64,000 bases of DNA from a virus (Duplodnaviria; Caudoviricetes), in the IMG/VR virus record IMGVR_UViG_3300046710_000151, positions 12,584 through 76,583 of that record; one strand, written 5' to 3'. Made by a program: the position numbers and the translations under genes. Positions 5,029 to 44,423 of the stretch are shown here, piece by piece. Below the pieces are notes generated by a model. It searched no databases. It worked only from the letters and a program-made list of their open reading frames with translations, and had not been told where the DNA came from. The number at the start of each line of letters is the position of its first letter. The stretch's first letter is position 1.

Positions 5029-6758
5029 TTCATCTTGGCTACATGCCAGTCAACGGCGCGGCTTATCTGCCGTTCTCAACTAACGACGCCAACGGGGCAG
5101 CCATCACCTTCACCGGGACGGTTTCGAATTTCAAGGTCTACAAGAATGGCAGCGTCACAGAGCGAACCTCCACGGCTGGTATCACGCTCTCCAAGGACTT
5201 CGACGGGGCGACCGGATCCCACCTGATTACCTTGGATCTTACAGACAACACCGATGCCGGATTCTGGGCTGACGGGGCGGTCTACACCATTGCGGCCAAC
5301 GGGATCACGGTGGACGCGAAGACGGTCACGGCCTGGGTAGGGGCTTTCAGGATTGGGACGGCAGCGGCGAACACAACGCAGGTAAATGGTACGGCACAGA
5401 CGGCGCGGGACTTGGGCCTGAGCGTACTCCTCTCTTCTGGCACTGGCACCGGGCAACTGGACTTCACTGCGGGCGTGGTCAAGGCCAATTTGGCTCAGAT
5501 TCTCGGCTCGGTTATCACGGGTACGGCGGCGTTGCTCGTGGCCGCGTTCACGAAGTTCTTCAACGTTGCGGCCCCGACTGCTACCTGCCTTAGCCTGCCC
5601 GATGCGGTACCGGGTGCTAACGGTGGTCTGCCAACAACGAACGGGACGAAAAATAACCAAACGGTGGACCTGACAGCAGGTCAGAGCATCGCAGCTTCCA
5701 GCGTCCCCGCCGTCACGCTCGCTAACGGAGCGCATGGCGGGGCGGTGGCGACCATTACGTTGCAGGCCCCAATTGCAGCGACCGTACCGGACAGCCAAAA
5801 GGTGGATGTGCACACCATTAAGACCGAGGCGGTCACGTGTGCTGCGCCCGTCACGGTGCTTGCGAGCGTGGGGACAGCGGCGGTCAGCACGGCGCAGACC
5901 GGAGACGTGGAGACGTTGATTACCACAGTAGGAGTGGCGGGCGCTGGCTTGACGGCACTCGGCGACACGCGGCTGGCCAACCTAGACGCTACGGTCGGCA
6001 GTCGCTCCACTTATGCAGGAGGGGCTGTGGCATCAGTCACGGGCTCCGTTGGGTCGGTGGCGTCCTTCGGAACCCTGGTCGCCGATATCGCTACAGCGAT
6101 CTGGGCAGCGGGAGCCAGGACCTTGACGGCCTTCGGCTTCTCGGTTACGGCCAGTTCGGTTGCTGACAAGACAGGCTACTCGCTGACGACCGCACCTCCC
6201 ACAGCTTCGGACGTAGCGACGGCGGTATGGGGTGCGGGCACGCGTACGCTCTCCAGCTTTGGGACGCTGGTAGCAGACGTGGCTACGGCGGTGTGGGGGG
6301 CTGGGACACGGGTCCTGACAGCTTTTGAATTCACGGTGGCGGCGACTCCCGATGCCAACGTGGCGCTGATTAAGGCCAAGACCGATTTGATCCCAGCAGT
6401 TCCGGCAGCAGTGGGGTCTGCGATGACCTTGGATGCCGCCTACGACCCAGCCAAGAGCGCGGCTCCCACCGGCGCTGCCATGACGCTCACCGGTGCCTAT
6501 GACGCGGCGAAGACGGCAGCGCCCACCGTGGCGCAGATTTTTGCGGCGCTGATGGGGGCAGACACCAGCGCGATCACTACTCTGGCGGATGAGAGCCTGT
6601 TGACGGCGCTGCGGTTGCTCGGCGGAATGAAAAACTGGTCGGTCAAGATGGAGGCCGGGCACGTCAACCTGTACGCACCCGGTAGCGGCACCCCGGCGGT
6701 ATCTCGCGCGATAACGACGGATGTTGGAGCGTTGCCGATTACGGAGGTTACCGCGTGA
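5025..6758 (+). CDS. virion structural protein with Ala/Thr-rich internal repeats
   Basis: 577 aa; repeated VA(T/D)AVWGAG(T/A)RTL and AYD.AK.AAP units; ATGA coupling. Confidence 0.55.
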   Translation: MIHLGYMPVNGAAYLPFSTNDANGAAITFTGTVSNFKVYKNGSVTERTSTAGITLSKDFDGATGSHLITLDLTDNTDAGFWADGAVYTIAANGITVDAKTVTAWVGAFRIGTAAANTTQVNGTAQTARDLGLSVLLSSGTGTGQLDFTAGVVKANLAQILGSVITGTAALLVAAFTKFFNVAAPTATCLSLPDAVPGANGGLPTTNGTKNNQTVDLTAGQSIAASSVPAVTLANGAHGGAVATITLQAPIAATVPDSQKVDVHTIKTEAVTCAAPVTVLASVGTAAVSTAQTGDVETLITTVGVAGAGLTALGDTRLANLDATVGSRSTYAGGAVASVTGSVGSVASFGTLVADIATAIWAAGARTLTAFGFSVTASSVADKTGYSLTTAPPTASDVATAVWGAGTRTLSSFGTLVADVATAVWGAGTRVLTAFEFTVAATPDANVALIKAKTDLIPAVPAAVGSAMTLDAAYDPAKSAAPTGAAMTLTGAYDAAKTAAPTVAQIFAALMGADTSAITTLADESLLTALRLLGGMKNWSVKMEAGHVNLYAPGSGTPAVSRAITTDVGALPITEVTA

Positions 6759-27244: not shown

Positions 27245-27667
27245 ATGGAAATAAGCCAACCACTCGCCAATCAAGGTGCGCGGATGCCGACCTATCGACC
27301 TCTGCCGGTTGCAAGGCGGCCAATCCATCTGACGAAGAGAGAACAAACGGTGGAGAGGGAGTTGGACTCGGGAAAAAACAATAAGGAAATCGCCGCGGTA
27401 TTAGGTATAGCGGTGGGCACCGTGAAGGCCTATCTCGTGCATCTCAAGGCGAAAGATCCCGCATGGGCCAATAGGTACACCACCGGGAACCGCTTGGTAA
27501 GGGGACGCGAGCGAGTCATGGCGATTCGGCTCAATAGCTGGATTGTTGCGTGGGGTGATGCTTTACCGACTCCGGCTCTTTCAGAAATCAAAGGGATTAT
27601 GGCCGATCAGGTCTGCCAGACGCTCTCAGGGATTGAACTTCCCTCGGGGAACTTGACATGCCCATAA
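27245..27667 (+). CDS. LuxR/GerE-type HTH protein
   Basis: LTKRE.......G..NKEIA..LGIA..TVK.YL motif. Confidence 0.75.
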   Translation: MEISQPLANQGARMPTYRPLPVARRPIHLTKREQTVERELDSGKNNKEIAAVLGIAVGTVKAYLVHLKAKDPAWANRYTTGNRLVRGRERVMAIRLNSWIVAWGDALPTPALSEIKGIMADQVCQTLSGIELPSGNLTCP

Positions 27668-28256: not shown

Positions 28257-28486
28257 AACGCGTCCAGCGCGAGACTCGCCGCCGGCAAATCGCCATGGGT
28301 ATCTGCCTGGGCATGTCAGTACGCCAAATGGCAGAAGCGCTTGATCTCAACATCCCGACTGTTTACAAATCTCATTATCGGGTAATCCGCGATGCCGGAA
28401 TGAGTGATCGTGTTGAATTTGCATTGCTTCAAAATGCGGGAGTGCGAGAGGTTCTCCGCCGAACTTTCCCAGGTGCCGGAACGTGA
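28253..28486 (+). CDS. LuxR-type HTH protein
   Basis: G.SVRQMAEALDL.I.TV.......RDAG...RVE motif. Confidence 0.6.
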   Translation: MKRVQRETRRRQIAMGICLGMSVRQMAEALDLNIPTVYKSHYRVIRDAGMSDRVEFALLQNAGVREVLRRTFPGAGT

Positions 28487-39310: not shown

Positions 39311-39607
39311 ATGGCCGCCCCTGAAAGCGCCGCGGTCCTGGCCGCGTTGAGTCGCGCCGCACGGTTGCGCGATGCCATGGAGCGGTCCGATCCGTTGGTG
39401 CGTGCGGTTGCGGTGGCTCGGGAAGCGCTACGGCATTGCGATCCACGAAGCGCGGCGTACAAGGCTGGCATGGTGGAACTGCTGCGCCGAAGGTTCGGCG
39501 GTTCGCGTGGCGATTGTCCATACGTGGCTGGGTCGGCAGAGTTTGATGCCTACTGCTCAGGTATCGAGTGCGGGTGGGGCGTGTGGCGGGAATGCGAATC
39601 TTTATGA
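39311..39607 (+). CDS. hypothetical protein
   Basis: CPY..GS..FDAY..G motif. Confidence 0.5.
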   Translation: MAAPESAAVLAALSRAARLRDAMERSDPLVRAVAVAREALRHCDPRSAAYKAGMVELLRRRFGGSRGDCPYVAGSAEFDAYCSGIECGWGVWRECESL

Positions 39608-40899
39608 AATCTGATTTAACGGTTTTGCCTGTTCCGGCTGAATCCTTCCTTTCATCCGCCCACTCGGGCGGTCGAGGCGATCTTCAGTCGCCGCATACAG
39701 CGTCGGGGGCAGGCGATGAGGGCGAGCATGTGCGACAGCGCGTGCTCGCCATTAAATTGAATTGTGATGACGACACCTATCGTCTGGTGAAAGAGTTAGG
39801 ATGGCAGGCGGCGCGCTACCGCAATCTTTTTCTGCGGGCACGCTGGGCCGAAGCGAAACAGCTTTGCGTCGATCCGGTGAAGGCGGTTCCGCACGATGTC
39901 ACTAAGCACATCCGCGCTACCGAAAAGATGGATCTCGGCTGGTGTGTTTCTAGCGCTTGCGAACGCGAGTCCCAGGTGGCATGGCAGTGTCACTGTCGGC
40001 GCATCCTAGCGGGTGGGCCGCTGCCTGAATCGAGCCCAAATGCGGCCCTCACGATTCGCGGCGACAAGCGCCGCATGGAATCGGGCGTACAACTGGTGGA
40101 GACGGAGCCGGATCGGTTTGTCGCGCGGTTGCGGGTATTAAGTGAGAGATTGGCGGATGGTGCTATGCGCGCGGAGGGCTGCTGGATTGAGGTTCCGGTG
40201 GCACTGGGGACGGCGAAGGATTGGCAGATCGATCTGATCCGCCGTATGAGCGCGGGCGAAGTTCCGATCCTGAAGGGTGCCCTTGTCATTAAGCCGTTTC
40301 GGCATCAGGTGATCTTGCAACTATGCTATCCAGTCACCATTGCCCTGCCGCGATTTGGCAACCGCTGCGCCACCTTGGGTCCGGTCGGCCAGGGCGGCAG
40401 ACTGTTTCTGCGCACAGAATGCGAGACGCGCGATTACTCGGGGCGGCTGCACGCGATTCTGGACCGCAAGGAACACTGGGGCGGTATCCGGCGGCGGGTC
40501 ATGGCGCAGATCGGACGGCACAAAGGTGCCTCCCGGACCAAGCGGGAAGTGCTGGCGCGGATGACTTGGGCCGACTGGCTGAAGACCGAATTGCATCAGT
40601 GGACTTGCGAGATTGCGAAGTGGCTGGACTCGCAAGGCATCGCCAAATTGACCGTGATGGGCTTGGGCAATGCGGATTGGTCAATCTTCGAATTTACACG
40701 AATGCTCACGTACAAGTGTGAAGCGCTGGGAATCACTTTGACCAGCGAAGCGGACTTAGCCGATGTGGGAACTGAACGGTCGGTGAAGCAGGAGATTCAG
40801 CGTGAGCGGCGCAAAACAACCAAACGGGCCGGGGCGCTGCGTACGCTTACGGCCTCAGTCAACGCGCCGTTGGCCAATGATACGACAGGAAAAGGATAA
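39568..40899 (+). CDS. Cas12f/TnpB-like protein with degenerate RuvC (probable start GTG 39730, about 389 aa)
   Basis: Colinear resemblance to Cas12f1 blocks recalled from memory (RRILAGG.PLP, FVARLRVLS, RRMSAGE, LHQW..EIAK.....GI..L, W...EF..ML.YKCE..GI); RuvC-I reads ATLGPV and RuvC-II reads TVMGL; no CxxC finger or RuvC-III. Confidence 0.75.
   Translation: MRVGRVAGMRIFMKSDLTVLPVPAESFLSSAHSGGRGDLQSPHTASGAGDEGEHVRQRVLAIKLNCDDDTYRLVKELGWQAARYRNLFLRARWAEAKQLCVDPVKAVPHDVTKHIRATEKMDLGWCVSSACERESQVAWQCHCRRILAGGPLPESSPNAALTIRGDKRRMESGVQLVETEPDRFVARLRVLSERLADGAMRAEGCWIEVPVALGTAKDWQIDLIRRMSAGEVPILKGALVIKPFRHQVILQLCYPVTIALPRFGNRCATLGPVGQGGRLFLRTECETRDYSGRLHAILDRKEHWGGIRRRVMAQIGRHKGASRTKREVLARMTWADWLKTELHQWTCEIAKWLDSQGIAKLTVMGLGNADWSIFEFTRMLTYKCEALGITLTSEADLADVGTERSVKQEIQRERRKTTKRAGALRTLTASVNAPLANDTTGKG
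39608..39729 (+). ncRNA. putative tracrRNA-like RNA
   Basis: Anti-repeat TCCTTCCTTTCATCC (39643-57), hairpin CCGCCC/GGGCGG, and hairpin GGCGA-TCTTCAG-TCGCC whose loop complements the repeat end CTGAAG. Confidence 0.5.
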
Positions 40900-40904
40900 A
40901 GAAT

Positions 40905-41228
40905 ATGGACAATCAAACGACTACTGCATTAAACGATCTGGCACCGCAAGCGGTCGCTGAGATCAAGAACTATTTTCAATCGACGGTGGACAGCGAGGAC
41001 AGCGCCTACAAACGTGCCGACCTCGGGCTCAAGGTCTTGGGGCGGGTCAACGGCAACGATTCCAACCGAATCAAAGTGCTGGCACTCCAATTCCAGGTGG
41101 CCCGCATGATGGGCGTCAAGGGAGATATGCTGCGTCCGCTGTTGGCGGAACTGAATCCGGCTCTTGCGACTGCCGGGGTAATTGCTGCTCCTCAACCCGT
41201 TGTTGGGGCTTTGTCTCCAGCGGCATAG
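40905..41228 (+). CDS. 107-aa helical accessory protein of the Cas12f-like locus
   Basis: 5 nt after the Cas12f-like stop; the array begins right after its stop. Confidence 0.65.
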   Translation: MDNQTTTALNDLAPQAVAEIKNYFQSTVDSEDSAYKRADLGLKVLGRVNGNDSNRIKVLALQFQVARMMGVKGDMLRPLLAELNPALATAGVIAAPQPVVGALSPAA

Positions 41229-41852
41229 GACTTTGTGGAAGGAACTGAAGGGAACCGACACCAACCCCGGACCCACGGCGCAGCGAGTAGGGACATGGAA
41301 GGAACTGAAGGTTGTCGAGCCCGTGTGCTGGTTTGGGCGCAGCATGTAGGGAATGTAGAAGGAACTGAAGGGTGCAAGGCCCGTCTGCCTTATGCCGCCT
41401 GGGCGCAGCAAGCACGGAATGCGGAAGGAACTGAAGGCAATAAGGCTTTCACACTGCGTCGGCGCAGCAGGGAATGCGGAAGGAACTGAAGGACTGATGA
41501 ACTCCGCGCCCATTCGGGGCACGCCGGGGGAAGGAACTGAAGGGACTCGACAGCGCTCTCTACCGGCGCAGGAAGTAGGGAATTCGGAAGGAACTGAAGG
41601 GCATCGGGTCCGAACAGCCCGCGCCAGTCGAACGGAATGCGGAAGGAACTGAGGGTTGCAAGGCGGCAACACGGTAGGTTGCGGAACCGCCTCGAATGTG
41701 GAAGGAACTGAAGGAAGCATAGATCCGGTTCCGAATCGACTGAACCAGCCGTAGCGCAGCGAGTTGGTGAATAGGAAGGAACTGAAGGCGATACTCTTCA
41801 TCCGCGGCGTTCTTGGCGCAGCGGGTTAGGTGAATAAGGAAGGAACTGAAGG
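41229..41852 (+). CRISPR. non-canonical CRISPR-like array, 11 repeats
   Basis: GGAAGGAACTGAAGG at 41237, 41297, 41357(A), 41423, 41478, 41529, 41586, 41641(GAGGG end), 41700, 41774, 41838; degenerate 5' part GGCGCAGC..GGAAT; unique ~19-40-nt spacers. Confidence 0.75.
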
Positions 41853-41896: not shown

Positions 41897-41997
41897 CAGA
41901 GCCACCGCAGCGCCGGGGTCTTCCCCGGCGACGGTTGCGGCGGCGGGAGAAGGAATCGTGTCTGACTGACGGCGCAGAAATCGGCAAGCCTTCTCAG
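41897..41997 (+). repeat. CAGAGCC...CCTTCTCAG hairpin element (intergenic copy)
   Basis: Same layout as copies at 52980, 55173, 56385 and 57954. Confidence 0.7.
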
Positions 41998-42272
41998 TGA
42001 GTAAAGAACAAGTGGGAAAGAACATGATACATCCGGTCTACCAGCAGCGCATCGCAGTCGCAGTCGCAGCATCGCAAAAGCAGGCGGTCACACTCCGTGT
42101 GGACGGAGACGGCGACACGGCCTACGTGGTGTGGATGGACCGTAACCGGCATGTCATCGCGTCGGGATCGGAAAAGGGCATGAAAGCGCTGCTGCCGGAT
42201 GTGCAGGCGGAGTTCAAGCGGCAGATGGACGCACAGAAGGTGGAAGGTAGAGGCATGAAGGCATGGCAGTAA
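41997..42272 (+). CDS. hypothetical protein
   Basis: Overlaps the start of the next gene. Confidence 0.45.
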   Translation: MSKEQVGKNMIHPVYQQRIAVAVAASQKQAVTLRVDGDGDTAYVVWMDRNRHVIASGSEKGMKALLPDVQAEFKRQMDAQKVEGRGMKAWQ

Positions 42273-43216
42273 CATTTGAATCGAAAACACCGATCAGCCG
42301 GGGCGATGCGACATACCGAATCGCCACCCACGATATTGATATTGACGCGGAGAACAACGGGCGGCATGTTCTGCCGGACATAGCGTGGTTGGAGAAGTCC
42401 ATCGAGGACCGCGGTCAGGACGTTCCGTGCATCGTCACCAAGGATGGAAGCCGCGCCAGAATGGTTGAAGGCCACTCGCGTTGGAGAGCTATCGTCAATA
42501 TCAACAAGCGCCGCGCTCCCGAAAATCAGTTGTTGGTCTGGTGTGTTTATTCCAGAGGCAACCCGGTGGATGCGCTCATTACCGGATTTGTCACTAACCG
42601 GGAACGTAACTCGCTAACGCCTGTTGACGAAGGGTATTTCGTCAATCGCATGTTGAAGTTCGGTAAGACCATCGAAGAGATCGCCGCCATCTGCCACGAA
42701 GATGTGCCATGGTGCAAACAGCGACTCGCACTGGTTTCTCTGACCCCTGAAGCGCAGACCGCCGTATCGGCCGGCACTGTCAAGGTACCAGCTGCTGTTG
42801 CGCTGTCGAAGCTCGCTGCCGAGGAACAGCGGCGCTATCTGAAGAGCGGCGGGAGGATGACTGCGGCGGCGATCAAGCACTCATCGGCCCCGGTGATCGT
42901 CAGGGCGAAGAAGCTGGGACTACCGGAACTCAAGGAGATTCTGCGGGCCGTCGTGGAAGACGGAGAGTTACCGCCGGCATTCCGGGAAGAGATGCACTCC
43001 AAGAAGGGGATCGTGGCCGGTGAGCCGCTGCACACGTTCTGTGGGCTGATCCTTGACATGTTGAATCCGCCCAAGGCGGCGTCGCCGGCAAAAGAGAAAG
43101 GTAAGCCCGGTCCAAAGCGAAAGCGGAAGGCTGCGGAACCTCCGGTTGCGCAAGTGCAGCAACTGCTGGATGCTGTGGTTTCGGAACCGCATTACGAATC
43201 AATCGATCAAGTTTGA
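42263..43216 (+). CDS. ParB/Spo0J-like protein
   Basis: L..SI...GQ..P..V........EGH.RWRA and N.ER..L.P.DE followed by an HTH. Confidence 0.8.
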   Translation: MAVTFESKTPISRGDATYRIATHDIDIDAENNGRHVLPDIAWLEKSIEDRGQDVPCIVTKDGSRARMVEGHSRWRAIVNINKRRAPENQLLVWCVYSRGNPVDALITGFVTNRERNSLTPVDEGYFVNRMLKFGKTIEEIAAICHEDVPWCKQRLALVSLTPEAQTAVSAGTVKVPAAVALSKLAAEEQRRYLKSGGRMTAAAIKHSSAPVIVRAKKLGLPELKEILRAVVEDGELPPAFREEMHSKKGIVAGEPLHTFCGLILDMLNPPKAASPAKEKGKPGPKRKRKAAEPPVAQVQQLLDAVVSEPHYESIDQV

Positions 43217-43402: not shown

Positions 43403-43675
43403 ATGAATAAGTACATGAGATTCCTCGGTTTGAGAGTGAAGGATCGGGTCACCGGCTTTACGGGAGTGGTCTCCTCAATCTGTTTTGATCTTTACGGCTG
43501 CGTGCAGGCGGCTGTCAGCCCGCCGGCCAAAGACGAGAAGCTGGAAGACGGTCGCTGGTTCGATTTGAAGCGGCTTGATATTCAAGATGAGACGCCAGTG
43601 ATGGAATTGCCGAGTTTTTCAAACGTCCCTGGCGGCGCCGAGAAATCACAGCCGCCTGACTCGCCCATCGGATAA
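43403..43675 (+). CDS. conserved phage SH3-like protein
   Basis: LG..V.D.VTGF.GV........GC motif. Confidence 0.7.
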   Translation: MNKYMRFLGLRVKDRVTGFTGVVSSICFDLYGCVQAAVSPPAKDEKLEDGRWFDLKRLDIQDETPVMELPSFSNVPGGAEKSQPPDSPIG

Positions 43676-44132: not shown

Positions 44133-44423
44133 ATGGAACGCAAAATGGAAGTGGTTTTGGGGTCGGTATACACGGACAAGGTAACGGGCTTCAGCGGCGT
44201 GGCACTTTCACGCCACCAGTATATGAACGGCTGTGTGCGCATCTGCATCCAGCCGCGCGGACTGCGAGAGGGGAAAATGATCGAGGCTCAGACGTTCGAT
44301 ATTGAGCAACTCGCACCCCCACTTGAGACCAAGCGTCCCGGAAAGTCAGTGATTGACGTAAATCCTCGCGCTACCGGTGGCCCTGGCGACATACCGAAGC
44401 CGCGAATGATCCCCCGGCGATAA
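44133..44423 (+). CDS. paralogue of 43403-43675
   Basis: LG....DKVTGF.GV......MNGC motif. Confidence 0.7.
   Translation: MERKMEVVLGSVYTDKVTGFSGVALSRHQYMNGCVRICIQPRGLREGKMIEAQTFDIEQLAPPLETKRPGKSVIDVNPRATGGPGDIPKPRMIPRR

Follow-up and report, generated by a model that had tools for sequence, protein, structure and literature searches.

A phage-borne Cas12f-like protein without RuvC catalytic residues, the probable effector of an RNA-guided module that does not cleave DNA

A gene at positions 39,730 to 40,899 (+ strand) of a viral DNA stretch was analysed here by computational means. The stretch, referred to as the window, has a length of 64,000 nucleotides (nt) and covers positions 12,584-76,583 of the IMG/VR virus record IMGVR_UViG_3300046710_000151. 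The gene probably encodes the effector of a self-contained type V-F (Cas12f) derivative that is carried by mobile elements, binds DNA under the guidance of RNA and does not cleave it. The fold of the effector, the family-wide loss of its catalytic motifs, the covariation within an RNA element upstream of the gene, the covariation of repeats and anti-repeats, and the linkage of four parts (tracr-like RNA, effector, small partner protein and CRISPR-like array) were established directly.

The fold was analysed with an AlphaFold2 model of the effector, which was built on 32 homologues and reached a predicted local distance difference test (pLDDT) value of 86.9. Foldseek matched this model to AsCas12f (8j12_A) with an E-value of 7.8e-17, and VIA-align returned Z values of 21.9 for SpCas12f1, 20-21 for AsCas12f and OsCas12f, 18.5 for the natural dead Cas12f (dCas12f) of Flagellimonas (Fta dCas12f; 9n9c/9n9m), 14.7 for TnpB, about 14 for Cas12k and 11-12 for Cas12m. 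The alignment with 9i8y_A (Z 21.9) had a root mean square deviation of 9.3 across 331 residues, and the N-terminal half of the effector alone was aligned with a deviation of 2.8 over 171 residues (Z 16). Model residues 1 to approximately 357 are colinear with Cas12f, and the order WED-REC-RuvC is kept. A preliminary description of the gene had noted the likeness to Cas12f and the colinearity of the upstream WED/REC-like blocks, and it was borne out on both points by these comparisons. On the level of sequence the relationship is remote. A profile of the effector family was searched against 1.84 billion representative proteins and retrieved the TNB-bearing TnpB/Cas12f-like protein P0156 (E 8e-7), and hhalign of the family with this canonical protein gave a probability of 93% and an E-value of 2.6e-7. 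The NCBIfam model guided_TnpB matched weakly (17.6 bits at a cut-off of 100) at effector residues 279-338, the PHROG transposase model matched the same residues (E 0.002), and no family, OrfB_IS605 included, exceeded the threshold in a Pfam scan. The term Cas12f-like is used here as a tested statement of modelled structure and remote homology and not as a family assignment by curated thresholds. Weak matches of the effector to the zinc-ribbon domain eL43 (E 0.006-0.01) were rejected, as they rest on four cysteines that are unique to the window protein. In a REC helix, positions 39940-40000 (residues ~71-90) encode a C-x4-C ... C-x-C pattern, whereas Ala, Ser or Tyr occupy these sites in every homologue.

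The sequence strings on which the preliminary description was built are all present in the translation of the gene: CATLGPV at residues 213-219, LTVMGL at residues 307-312, YKCEALGITL at residues 328-337 and the basic stretch SVKQEI...LRTL at residues 351-373 (nt 40780-40848). When the family profile was compared with the sequences of the PDB, the motif IQMEDL of AsCas12f was placed over LTVVGL of the family (LTVMGL in the window). In the hhalign comparison, GIDIG of P0156 was paired with ATLGP and IIQMED with LTVMG. This alignment stops at strand beta5, past which P0156 continues with a Zn-ribbon and RuvC-III and the effector family has only a helix. Instead of the Asp-Glu-Asp triad of RuvC, the family has Leu or Ala-Thr at RuvC-I, Met or Val at RuvC-II and no RuvC-III segment. 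Moreover, when 61 family representatives were aligned with MAFFT, neither the RuvC-I Asp nor the Zn-ribbon was found in any sequence, and none of the acidic columns of the RuvC half was kept in more than 70% of the sequences. The loss of the catalytic residues of RuvC-I and RuvC-II, as claimed at the outset, is thus seen in the profile-to-PDB alignment, in hhalign and across the 61 representatives. That the effector is still an active nuclease with relocated catalytic residues is very improbable. Rearranged RuvC sites are known from TnpB clades (PMC10691335), and D235, D316 and E340 are invariant or nearly invariant within the close subfamily. However, the known rearrangements retain the RuvC-I Asp (PMC10691335), which no member of this family has, and this makes a move of the active site very unlikely; D316, invariant in the close subfamily, falls on the N/D-W motif of active relatives, which is not catalytic; and neither a widely kept acidic column in the RuvC half nor any part of the RuvC-III/TNB segment is left.

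The C-terminus of the effector family is formed by a Cys-free helix, which in the AlphaFold2 model comprises residues 346-378. The end of the hhalign alignment at beta5, the lack of a Pfam match to the TNB Zn-ribbon (PF07282) in the effector and the modelled helix agree with the initial observation that the zinc finger and RuvC-III have been replaced by a basic helix. From residue 346 onwards, the tail contains 10 Lys or Arg and 4 Asp or Glu residues. Within the close subfamily R350 is invariant, and T348, R360, A369, R371 and L373 are nearly so. In the VIA-align comparisons the helix was aligned to no Cas12f chain. The preliminary description suggested that the tail may dock the adjacent small protein or RNA polymerase. 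The helix may contact the partner protein, but it may equally well stand in for the lost nucleic-acid-binding TNB domain.

Upstream of the effector, an element of approximately 90-130 nt is common to 15 loci. RNAalifold predicted 24 consensus base pairs for 13 distinct loci, 15 of which show compensatory changes; 95.8% of the cells were paired, compared to 38-60% with slid partners, and the observed values were attained by none of 500 shuffles. The unpaired anti-repeat A shows complementarity to the repeat segment that lies immediately 5′ of ACTGAAGG and co-varies with this segment, each of six repeat classes being matched. Examples of these anti-repeat/repeat pairs are TCCTTCC/GGAAGGA (window), TCCTCTC/GAGAGGA, TCTCCTC/GAGGAGA, CCCTCTC/GAGAGGG and CCCTGCTC/GAGCAGGG. 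Additionally, anti-repeat B, the loop sequence CTTCAG, is complementary to CTGAAG. Duplexes of the element with cognate repeats had a mean energy of -14.9 kcal/mol, and those with non-cognate repeats of -9.6 kcal/mol. Two repeat:anti-repeat duplexes are a feature of Cas12f1. Judged by sequence covariation, the element is a predicted RNA and the tracrRNA-type (trans-activating CRISPR RNA) partner of the array; no Rfam family was matched.

The repeats downstream are well conserved in the window only in their 3′ 15 nt (ending GGAACTGAAGG), while their 5′ half is degenerate. The periods vary between 51 and 74 nt, the unique spacers measure about 20-39 nt, and the last spacer continues to position ~41880. 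With one mismatch allowed, the repeat motif has 14 matches in the window, 11 of them in the array and all of these on the + strand, compared to 1.1 expected by chance. The window repeats are regarded as a CRISPR-like array because homologous loci carry regular or compact arrays with the same motif end. In total, arrays adjoin the gene in the window and in 14 loci (L001-L005, L008-L010, L012-L016, L020), always on the strand of the gene. Regular arrays with repeats of 35-37 nt and periods of about 72 nt are found at L001, L002, L008 and L009. The compact arrays of L003, L004, L005, L010, L012, L014, L015 and L016 consist of 15-17-nt repeat 3′ ends alternating with spacers of ~16-20 nt; they comprise up to 30 units at L012 and at times flank the genes of the module on both sides. 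An explanation without RNA guidance, in which a DNA-binding protein reads the 15-nt motif as iterons or as a centromere, deserves hardly any credence. It would account for the irregular spacing of the motif and for a ParB-like gene located 1 kb downstream (42263-43216), but canonical 36/36 repeat-spacer arrays are present at homologous loci, the repeats co-vary with the upstream structured RNA, ParB is not a conserved neighbour, and the protein has the fold of a family that works with guide RNAs.

Several further observations were made on the arrays. One of the homologous loci (L005/G003), a complete phage of 40,510 bp with direct terminal repeats in IMG/VR, has mini-arrays on both sides of the effector that reach into the terminal repeat, and a unit of 114 nt, composed of the 3′ end of the partner gene and three repeat-spacer units, is tandemly duplicated there. 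In the window, spacers 2 and 3 (41312-41335 and 41372-41401) are about 70% identical to each other in the first 20 nt, which would suit guides directed against variants of one target. The last spacer is directly followed by a GC-rich hairpin (41897-41990), in which Rfam CRISPR-DR29 matches positions 41907-41941 far below threshold (E 0.85).

The spacers are not shared between relatives. No self-match of the window spacers was found in the 76.5-kb contig, comparison with two complete related phages yielded nothing above the level of shuffled spacers, and no cross-targeting was detected among the loci. The window array had only chance-level matches in phage and plasmid collections, no protospacer was found in public collections for the arrays of L008, L001 and L009, three spacer 20-mers had no match in a scan of IMG/VR, and one spacer 18-mer had four matches in GTDB genomes, none of which extends. 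Since the spacers are many and unshared among relatives, a role in conflicts with mobile elements or the host fits better than a fixed regulatory circuit. A dead Cas12f with a tracr-like RNA could also act as a decoy or anti-CRISPR that sequesters type V-F CRISPR RNAs (crRNAs) or the tracrRNA of the host, as proposed for phage dead Cas9. This is improbable. The effector is phage-encoded and nuclease-dead by its motifs, no spacer targets were found, and a precedent has been discussed (PMC10910872, PMC11656645), but the module is self-contained, since it has arrays of 5-30 unique spacers of its own and a tracr-like RNA that co-varies with its own repeats.

The fourth part of the module is a small protein encoded directly after the effector gene or after a mini-array. 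In 18 of the 19 loci with enough DNA, a hidden Markov model built from 14 relatives detected this protein downstream of the effector and on its strand, and it is retained even where the effector is only 35% identical. The open reading frame in the window is a real gene and a tightly linked partner. No match to Pfam, PHROG or NCBIfam was obtained for the partner protein, and Pfam and PHROGs were empty for all 14 members checked. Its AlphaFold2 model is of low confidence (pLDDT 67); Foldseek returned nothing from the PDB at E <= 0.001, the ESM Atlas yielded no usable feature match but only generic helical bundles, and no longer fused forms were found. At L003, a gene for an HTH_23-like protein of 120 amino acids (aa) lies between the effector and partner genes (5181-5543).

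The retention of the partner gene in 18 of 19 loci, even at 35% effector identity, also speaks for a version of the RNA-guided dead effector whose purpose is recruitment, with the C-terminal helix and/or the partner coupling DNA binding to RNA polymerase, a recombinase/integrase or a host nuclease. The conserved tail of the effector points the same way, integrase or recombinase genes are located nearby in some loci, and the truncated RuvC of a known dCas12f is bound by the C-terminal domain of sigmaE (PMC13472631; 10.1101/2025.06.10.658880). However, recruitment as the purpose is rather unlikely. The partner resembles neither a sigma factor nor any other known family. No sigma domains were found in the open reading frames adjoining the effector, no Sigma70_r2 in the contig and no sigma factor in the gene lists of the homologous loci; the contig has only sub-threshold helix-turn-helix matches 12 kb away. 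Moreover, the neighbouring genes differ between loci, and many fast-changing spacers suit conflict more than dedicated regulation.

The effector family is rare and comprises 126 clusters at 50% identity, all of them metagenomic; no member was found in cultured phages or in a pattern scan of GTDB genomes. The 31 close homologues of the effector are 43-61% identical and share many invariant columns, the C-terminal helix included. The gene is not a decayed relic, because these invariant columns indicate purifying selection and the family is represented by the 126 clusters. The window effector comes from a peat metagenome, where it is carried on a virus record of 76.5 kb (G000). Two sequencing runs are listed for this DNA, both of them peat metagenomes and one of them probably its source, and no RNA run is listed. 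The related records G001-G004 are likewise viral, and two of them are complete phages. The family occurs in phages and in one conjugative element: at L008 (5001-7000), a family member is found right after the conjugation genes TrbL, VirB8, CagX and TrbI, and therefore the module is not confined to phages. No Cas1 or Cas2 was found in G000, and no Cas1 in G001-G004. In the window, the neighbourhood is a phage region with DUF2303, the ParB-like gene, Dam and a Prim-Pol/D5 primase, and RecT, ERF, YqaJ, terminase, portal, integrases and TrbL/VirB8 are found near the homologues.

The reading frame of the effector is open from 39568 up to the stop at 40899. Besides the GTG listed in Table 1, an ATG at 39604 would give an effector form of 431 aa, which is the form called in databases. 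The start is uncertain because, in 11 of 13 loci, the RNA element shares the open frame of the gene; there, a start codon lies upstream of the element and the lengths of inserts are multiples of three. At L005/L007 and L012, a mini-array is located between the RNA element and the effector gene. The 5′ coding region of the effector may include the RNA element. The stretch 39568-39729, which holds the tracr-like RNA within an open reading frame running on into the effector and includes the upstream ATG, may have a double role as RNA and as coding sequence, mirroring the overlap of TnpB with its omegaRNA at the opposite end of the gene. In relatives, the upstream start comes after strong Shine-Dalgarno-like sequences, and the inserts in the hairpin have lengths of 30, 33 or 36 nt.

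The following course of events is proposed for the module. The locus would be transcribed from the + strand, and the upstream RNA would base-pair, by means of the two segments of its anti-repeat, with the 15 conserved nt at the 3′ end of each repeat, giving tracr:crRNA scaffolds of the Cas12f type, each followed by a guide of ~16-25 nt. The effector, probably as a dimer like other Cas12f proteins, would bind these RNAs and form R-loops on matching DNA. Cutting would not follow, the RuvC-I Asp and the RuvC-II Glu having been exchanged for hydrophobic residues and the Zn-ribbon and RuvC-III for the basic helix. Binding free of cleavage would most likely act as a roadblock to transcription or replication on rival mobile elements or host genes, and the conserved partner of ~100 aa may modulate or transmit this output. 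The proposal of the preliminary description that the protein only binds DNA is well supported by the loss of the catalytic motifs, TNB and RuvC-III together with the retention of fold, tracr-like RNA and array, all of which are features of sequences and models.

Some points weigh against this interpretation. RNA and DNA binding by the effector are inferred rather than taken from experiments, and the same applies to its dimerisation and to the roles of tail and partner; the output is likewise inferred, since no protospacer was found in the collections searched. For none of the spacers could a protospacer be found in the phages' own genomes or in the public collections searched. Moreover, the catalytic loss was read from sequence alignments, the sequence similarity to Cas12f lies far under curated thresholds, and the half-degenerate, irregularly spaced repeats of the window could belong to an array in decay.

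A more far-reaching scenario can be offered tentatively. The family might be a hitherto undescribed dead type V subtype specific to mobile elements, in which the partner, located on the C-terminal helix or on the RNA, turns DNA binding into a new output by recruiting or blocking RNA polymerase or a host defence factor, and in which guides are renewed without Cas1-Cas2. The units of the compact arrays, composed of a half-repeat and a 16-20-nt spacer, have approximately the size of a mature crRNA and therefore hint at a different way of guide capture.

The coordinates of the features are listed in Table 1. Apart from these, two small open reading frames 12 kb upstream have sub-threshold Sigma70_r4_2-like helix-turn-helix matches (27371-27448 and 28307-28381; 22.6 and 14 bits), which are probably ordinary phage regulators. 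Downstream of the ParB-like gene, two paralogous phage proteins of ~90 aa (phrog_37639 / phrog_16275) are encoded 450 nt apart at 43403-43675 and 44133-44423.

Table 1. Features of the module in the window.
Feature	Position	Strand	Remarks
Tracr-like structured RNA	39624..39721 (approx.)	+	upstream of effector; covariation
Tracr-like RNA, closing stem	39627-39631 / 39710-39714	+	
Anti-repeat A, TCCTTCC	39643-39649	+	
Tracr-like RNA, local hairpin	39656-39671	+	
Tracr-like RNA, inner stem	39676-39680 / 39688-39692	+	loop carries anti-repeat B, CTTCAG, 39682-39687
Cas12f-like effector, predicted nuclease-dead	39730..40899	+	389 aa from GTG 39730
RuvC-I remnant, CATLGPV	40366..40386	+	strand beta1 ends without Asp; hhalign with P0156
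RuvC-II remnant, LTVMGL	40648..40665	+	Met for catalytic Glu; family consensus Val
Conserved C-terminal basic helix (TERS...LRTL)	40771..40848	+	in place of TNB Zn-ribbon and RuvC-III
Partner protein, 107 aa, all-helical (predicted)	40905..41228	+	hidden Markov model from A2 alignment
CRISPR-like array, 11 repeats of ~36 nt	41229..41852	+	motif ending GGAACTGAAGG

Among the derivatives of Cas12f and TnpB that are nuclease-dead, natural RNA-guided repressors (TldR) and activators (dCas12f-sigmaE) have recently been demonstrated. The lineage described here would add a third setting, a module of tracr-like RNA, effector, partner and array on phages and a conjugative element with many fast-changing guides, which points to interference without cleavage in conflicts among mobile elements or against the host. 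With its 389 aa and a natural multi-guide array, the effector would be a small DNA-binding protein that can be programmed. Two questions arise from the partner and the half-repeat arrays: how an output is coupled to binding and where guides originate without Cas1-Cas2.

Among the known systems, Cas12f1 (AsCas12f, OsCas12f, SpCas12f1, Un1Cas12f1) is the most similar one, as it provides the best structural match and shares the size of ~400 aa, the arrays with 36-nt repeats (in some loci) and a tracr with a two-part anti-repeat. In contrast to Cas12f1, the effector has no RuvC D/E/D residues and no TNB Zn-ribbon, ends in a basic C-terminal helix and is missed by the Pfam and NCBIfam models, and the module includes a conserved small partner and half-repeat mini-arrays and is carried by phages and a conjugative element.

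Dead Cas12f proteins have been described in a sigmaE-linked clade of Bacteroidota and in a CRISPR-linked cluster (PMC10691335, PMC13472631, 10.1101/2025.06.10.658880). The dCas12f-sigmaE systems, with which Sigma-TnpB (PMC10691335) is grouped, share the loss of nuclease activity and of the C-terminal part of RuvC and a linked small partner, with a fold similarity of Z 18.5. They differ by an operonic ECF sigma factor (rpoE) with a C-terminal extension, which is lacking here, and by a single downstream guide RNA of 85-105 nt without tracrRNA, whereas an upstream tracr-like RNA and multi-spacer arrays are present here. Furthermore, the spacers of the family are many and variable instead of one or few fixed guides, and its members reside on mobile elements from peat and soil metagenomes with ~60% GC. 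The profile has no special affinity to Fta dCas12f, and therefore the inactivation may have been independent. The dCas12f cluster of Chitinophagaceae linked to CRISPR arrays (PMC13472631, Extended Data Fig. 1) resembles the module in its adjoining arrays, a covarying RNA upstream of the array and a proposed repression. According to its description, however, it is chromosomal in Bacteroidota, its guides match promoters of efflux pumps, and no small partner is described. The effector family may nevertheless be identical with this cluster, which was compared by its description, or may already be listed as an unnamed V-U cluster. Supplementary sequences of PMC10691335 and PMC13472631 aside, no family of phages or conjugative elements with such a partner, an upstream tracr and half-repeat arrays was found in the literature.

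TldR proteins likewise have a dead RuvC and a C-terminal truncation, repress by RNA-guided DNA binding and are sometimes encoded by prophages. However, they are direct derivatives of TnpB with a fixed guide and one omegaRNA that overlaps the gene at its 3′ end, and they are linked to fliC or oppF, whereas a tracr, arrays of 5-30 unique spacers and a different partner are found here; neither fliC nor oppF was found among the neighbours of the homologous loci. The transposon-associated Cas12k and CasMu-V, the latter a type V effector without RuvC-III (PMC10910872), are alike in lacking RuvC-III and in serving for targeting only. A reading as a Mu-type CRISPR-associated transposon was ruled out, as there are no transposase neighbours: Tn7-like or Mu transposition genes were found neither among the genes called around seven homologous loci nor near the window locus. 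Cas12m (V-M) and the type IV systems on plasmids share with the module the location on mobile elements, DNA binding without cleavage, a proposed competition between elements and many loci without adaptation genes. Cas12m differs in belonging to another Cas12 lineage (Z 11-12), in its size of ~600 aa, in having no tracrRNA and in keeping RuvC for crRNA processing. The spacers of the module resemble those of Cas12m and of the type IV plasmid systems more than the guides of TldR or dCas12f-sigmaE.

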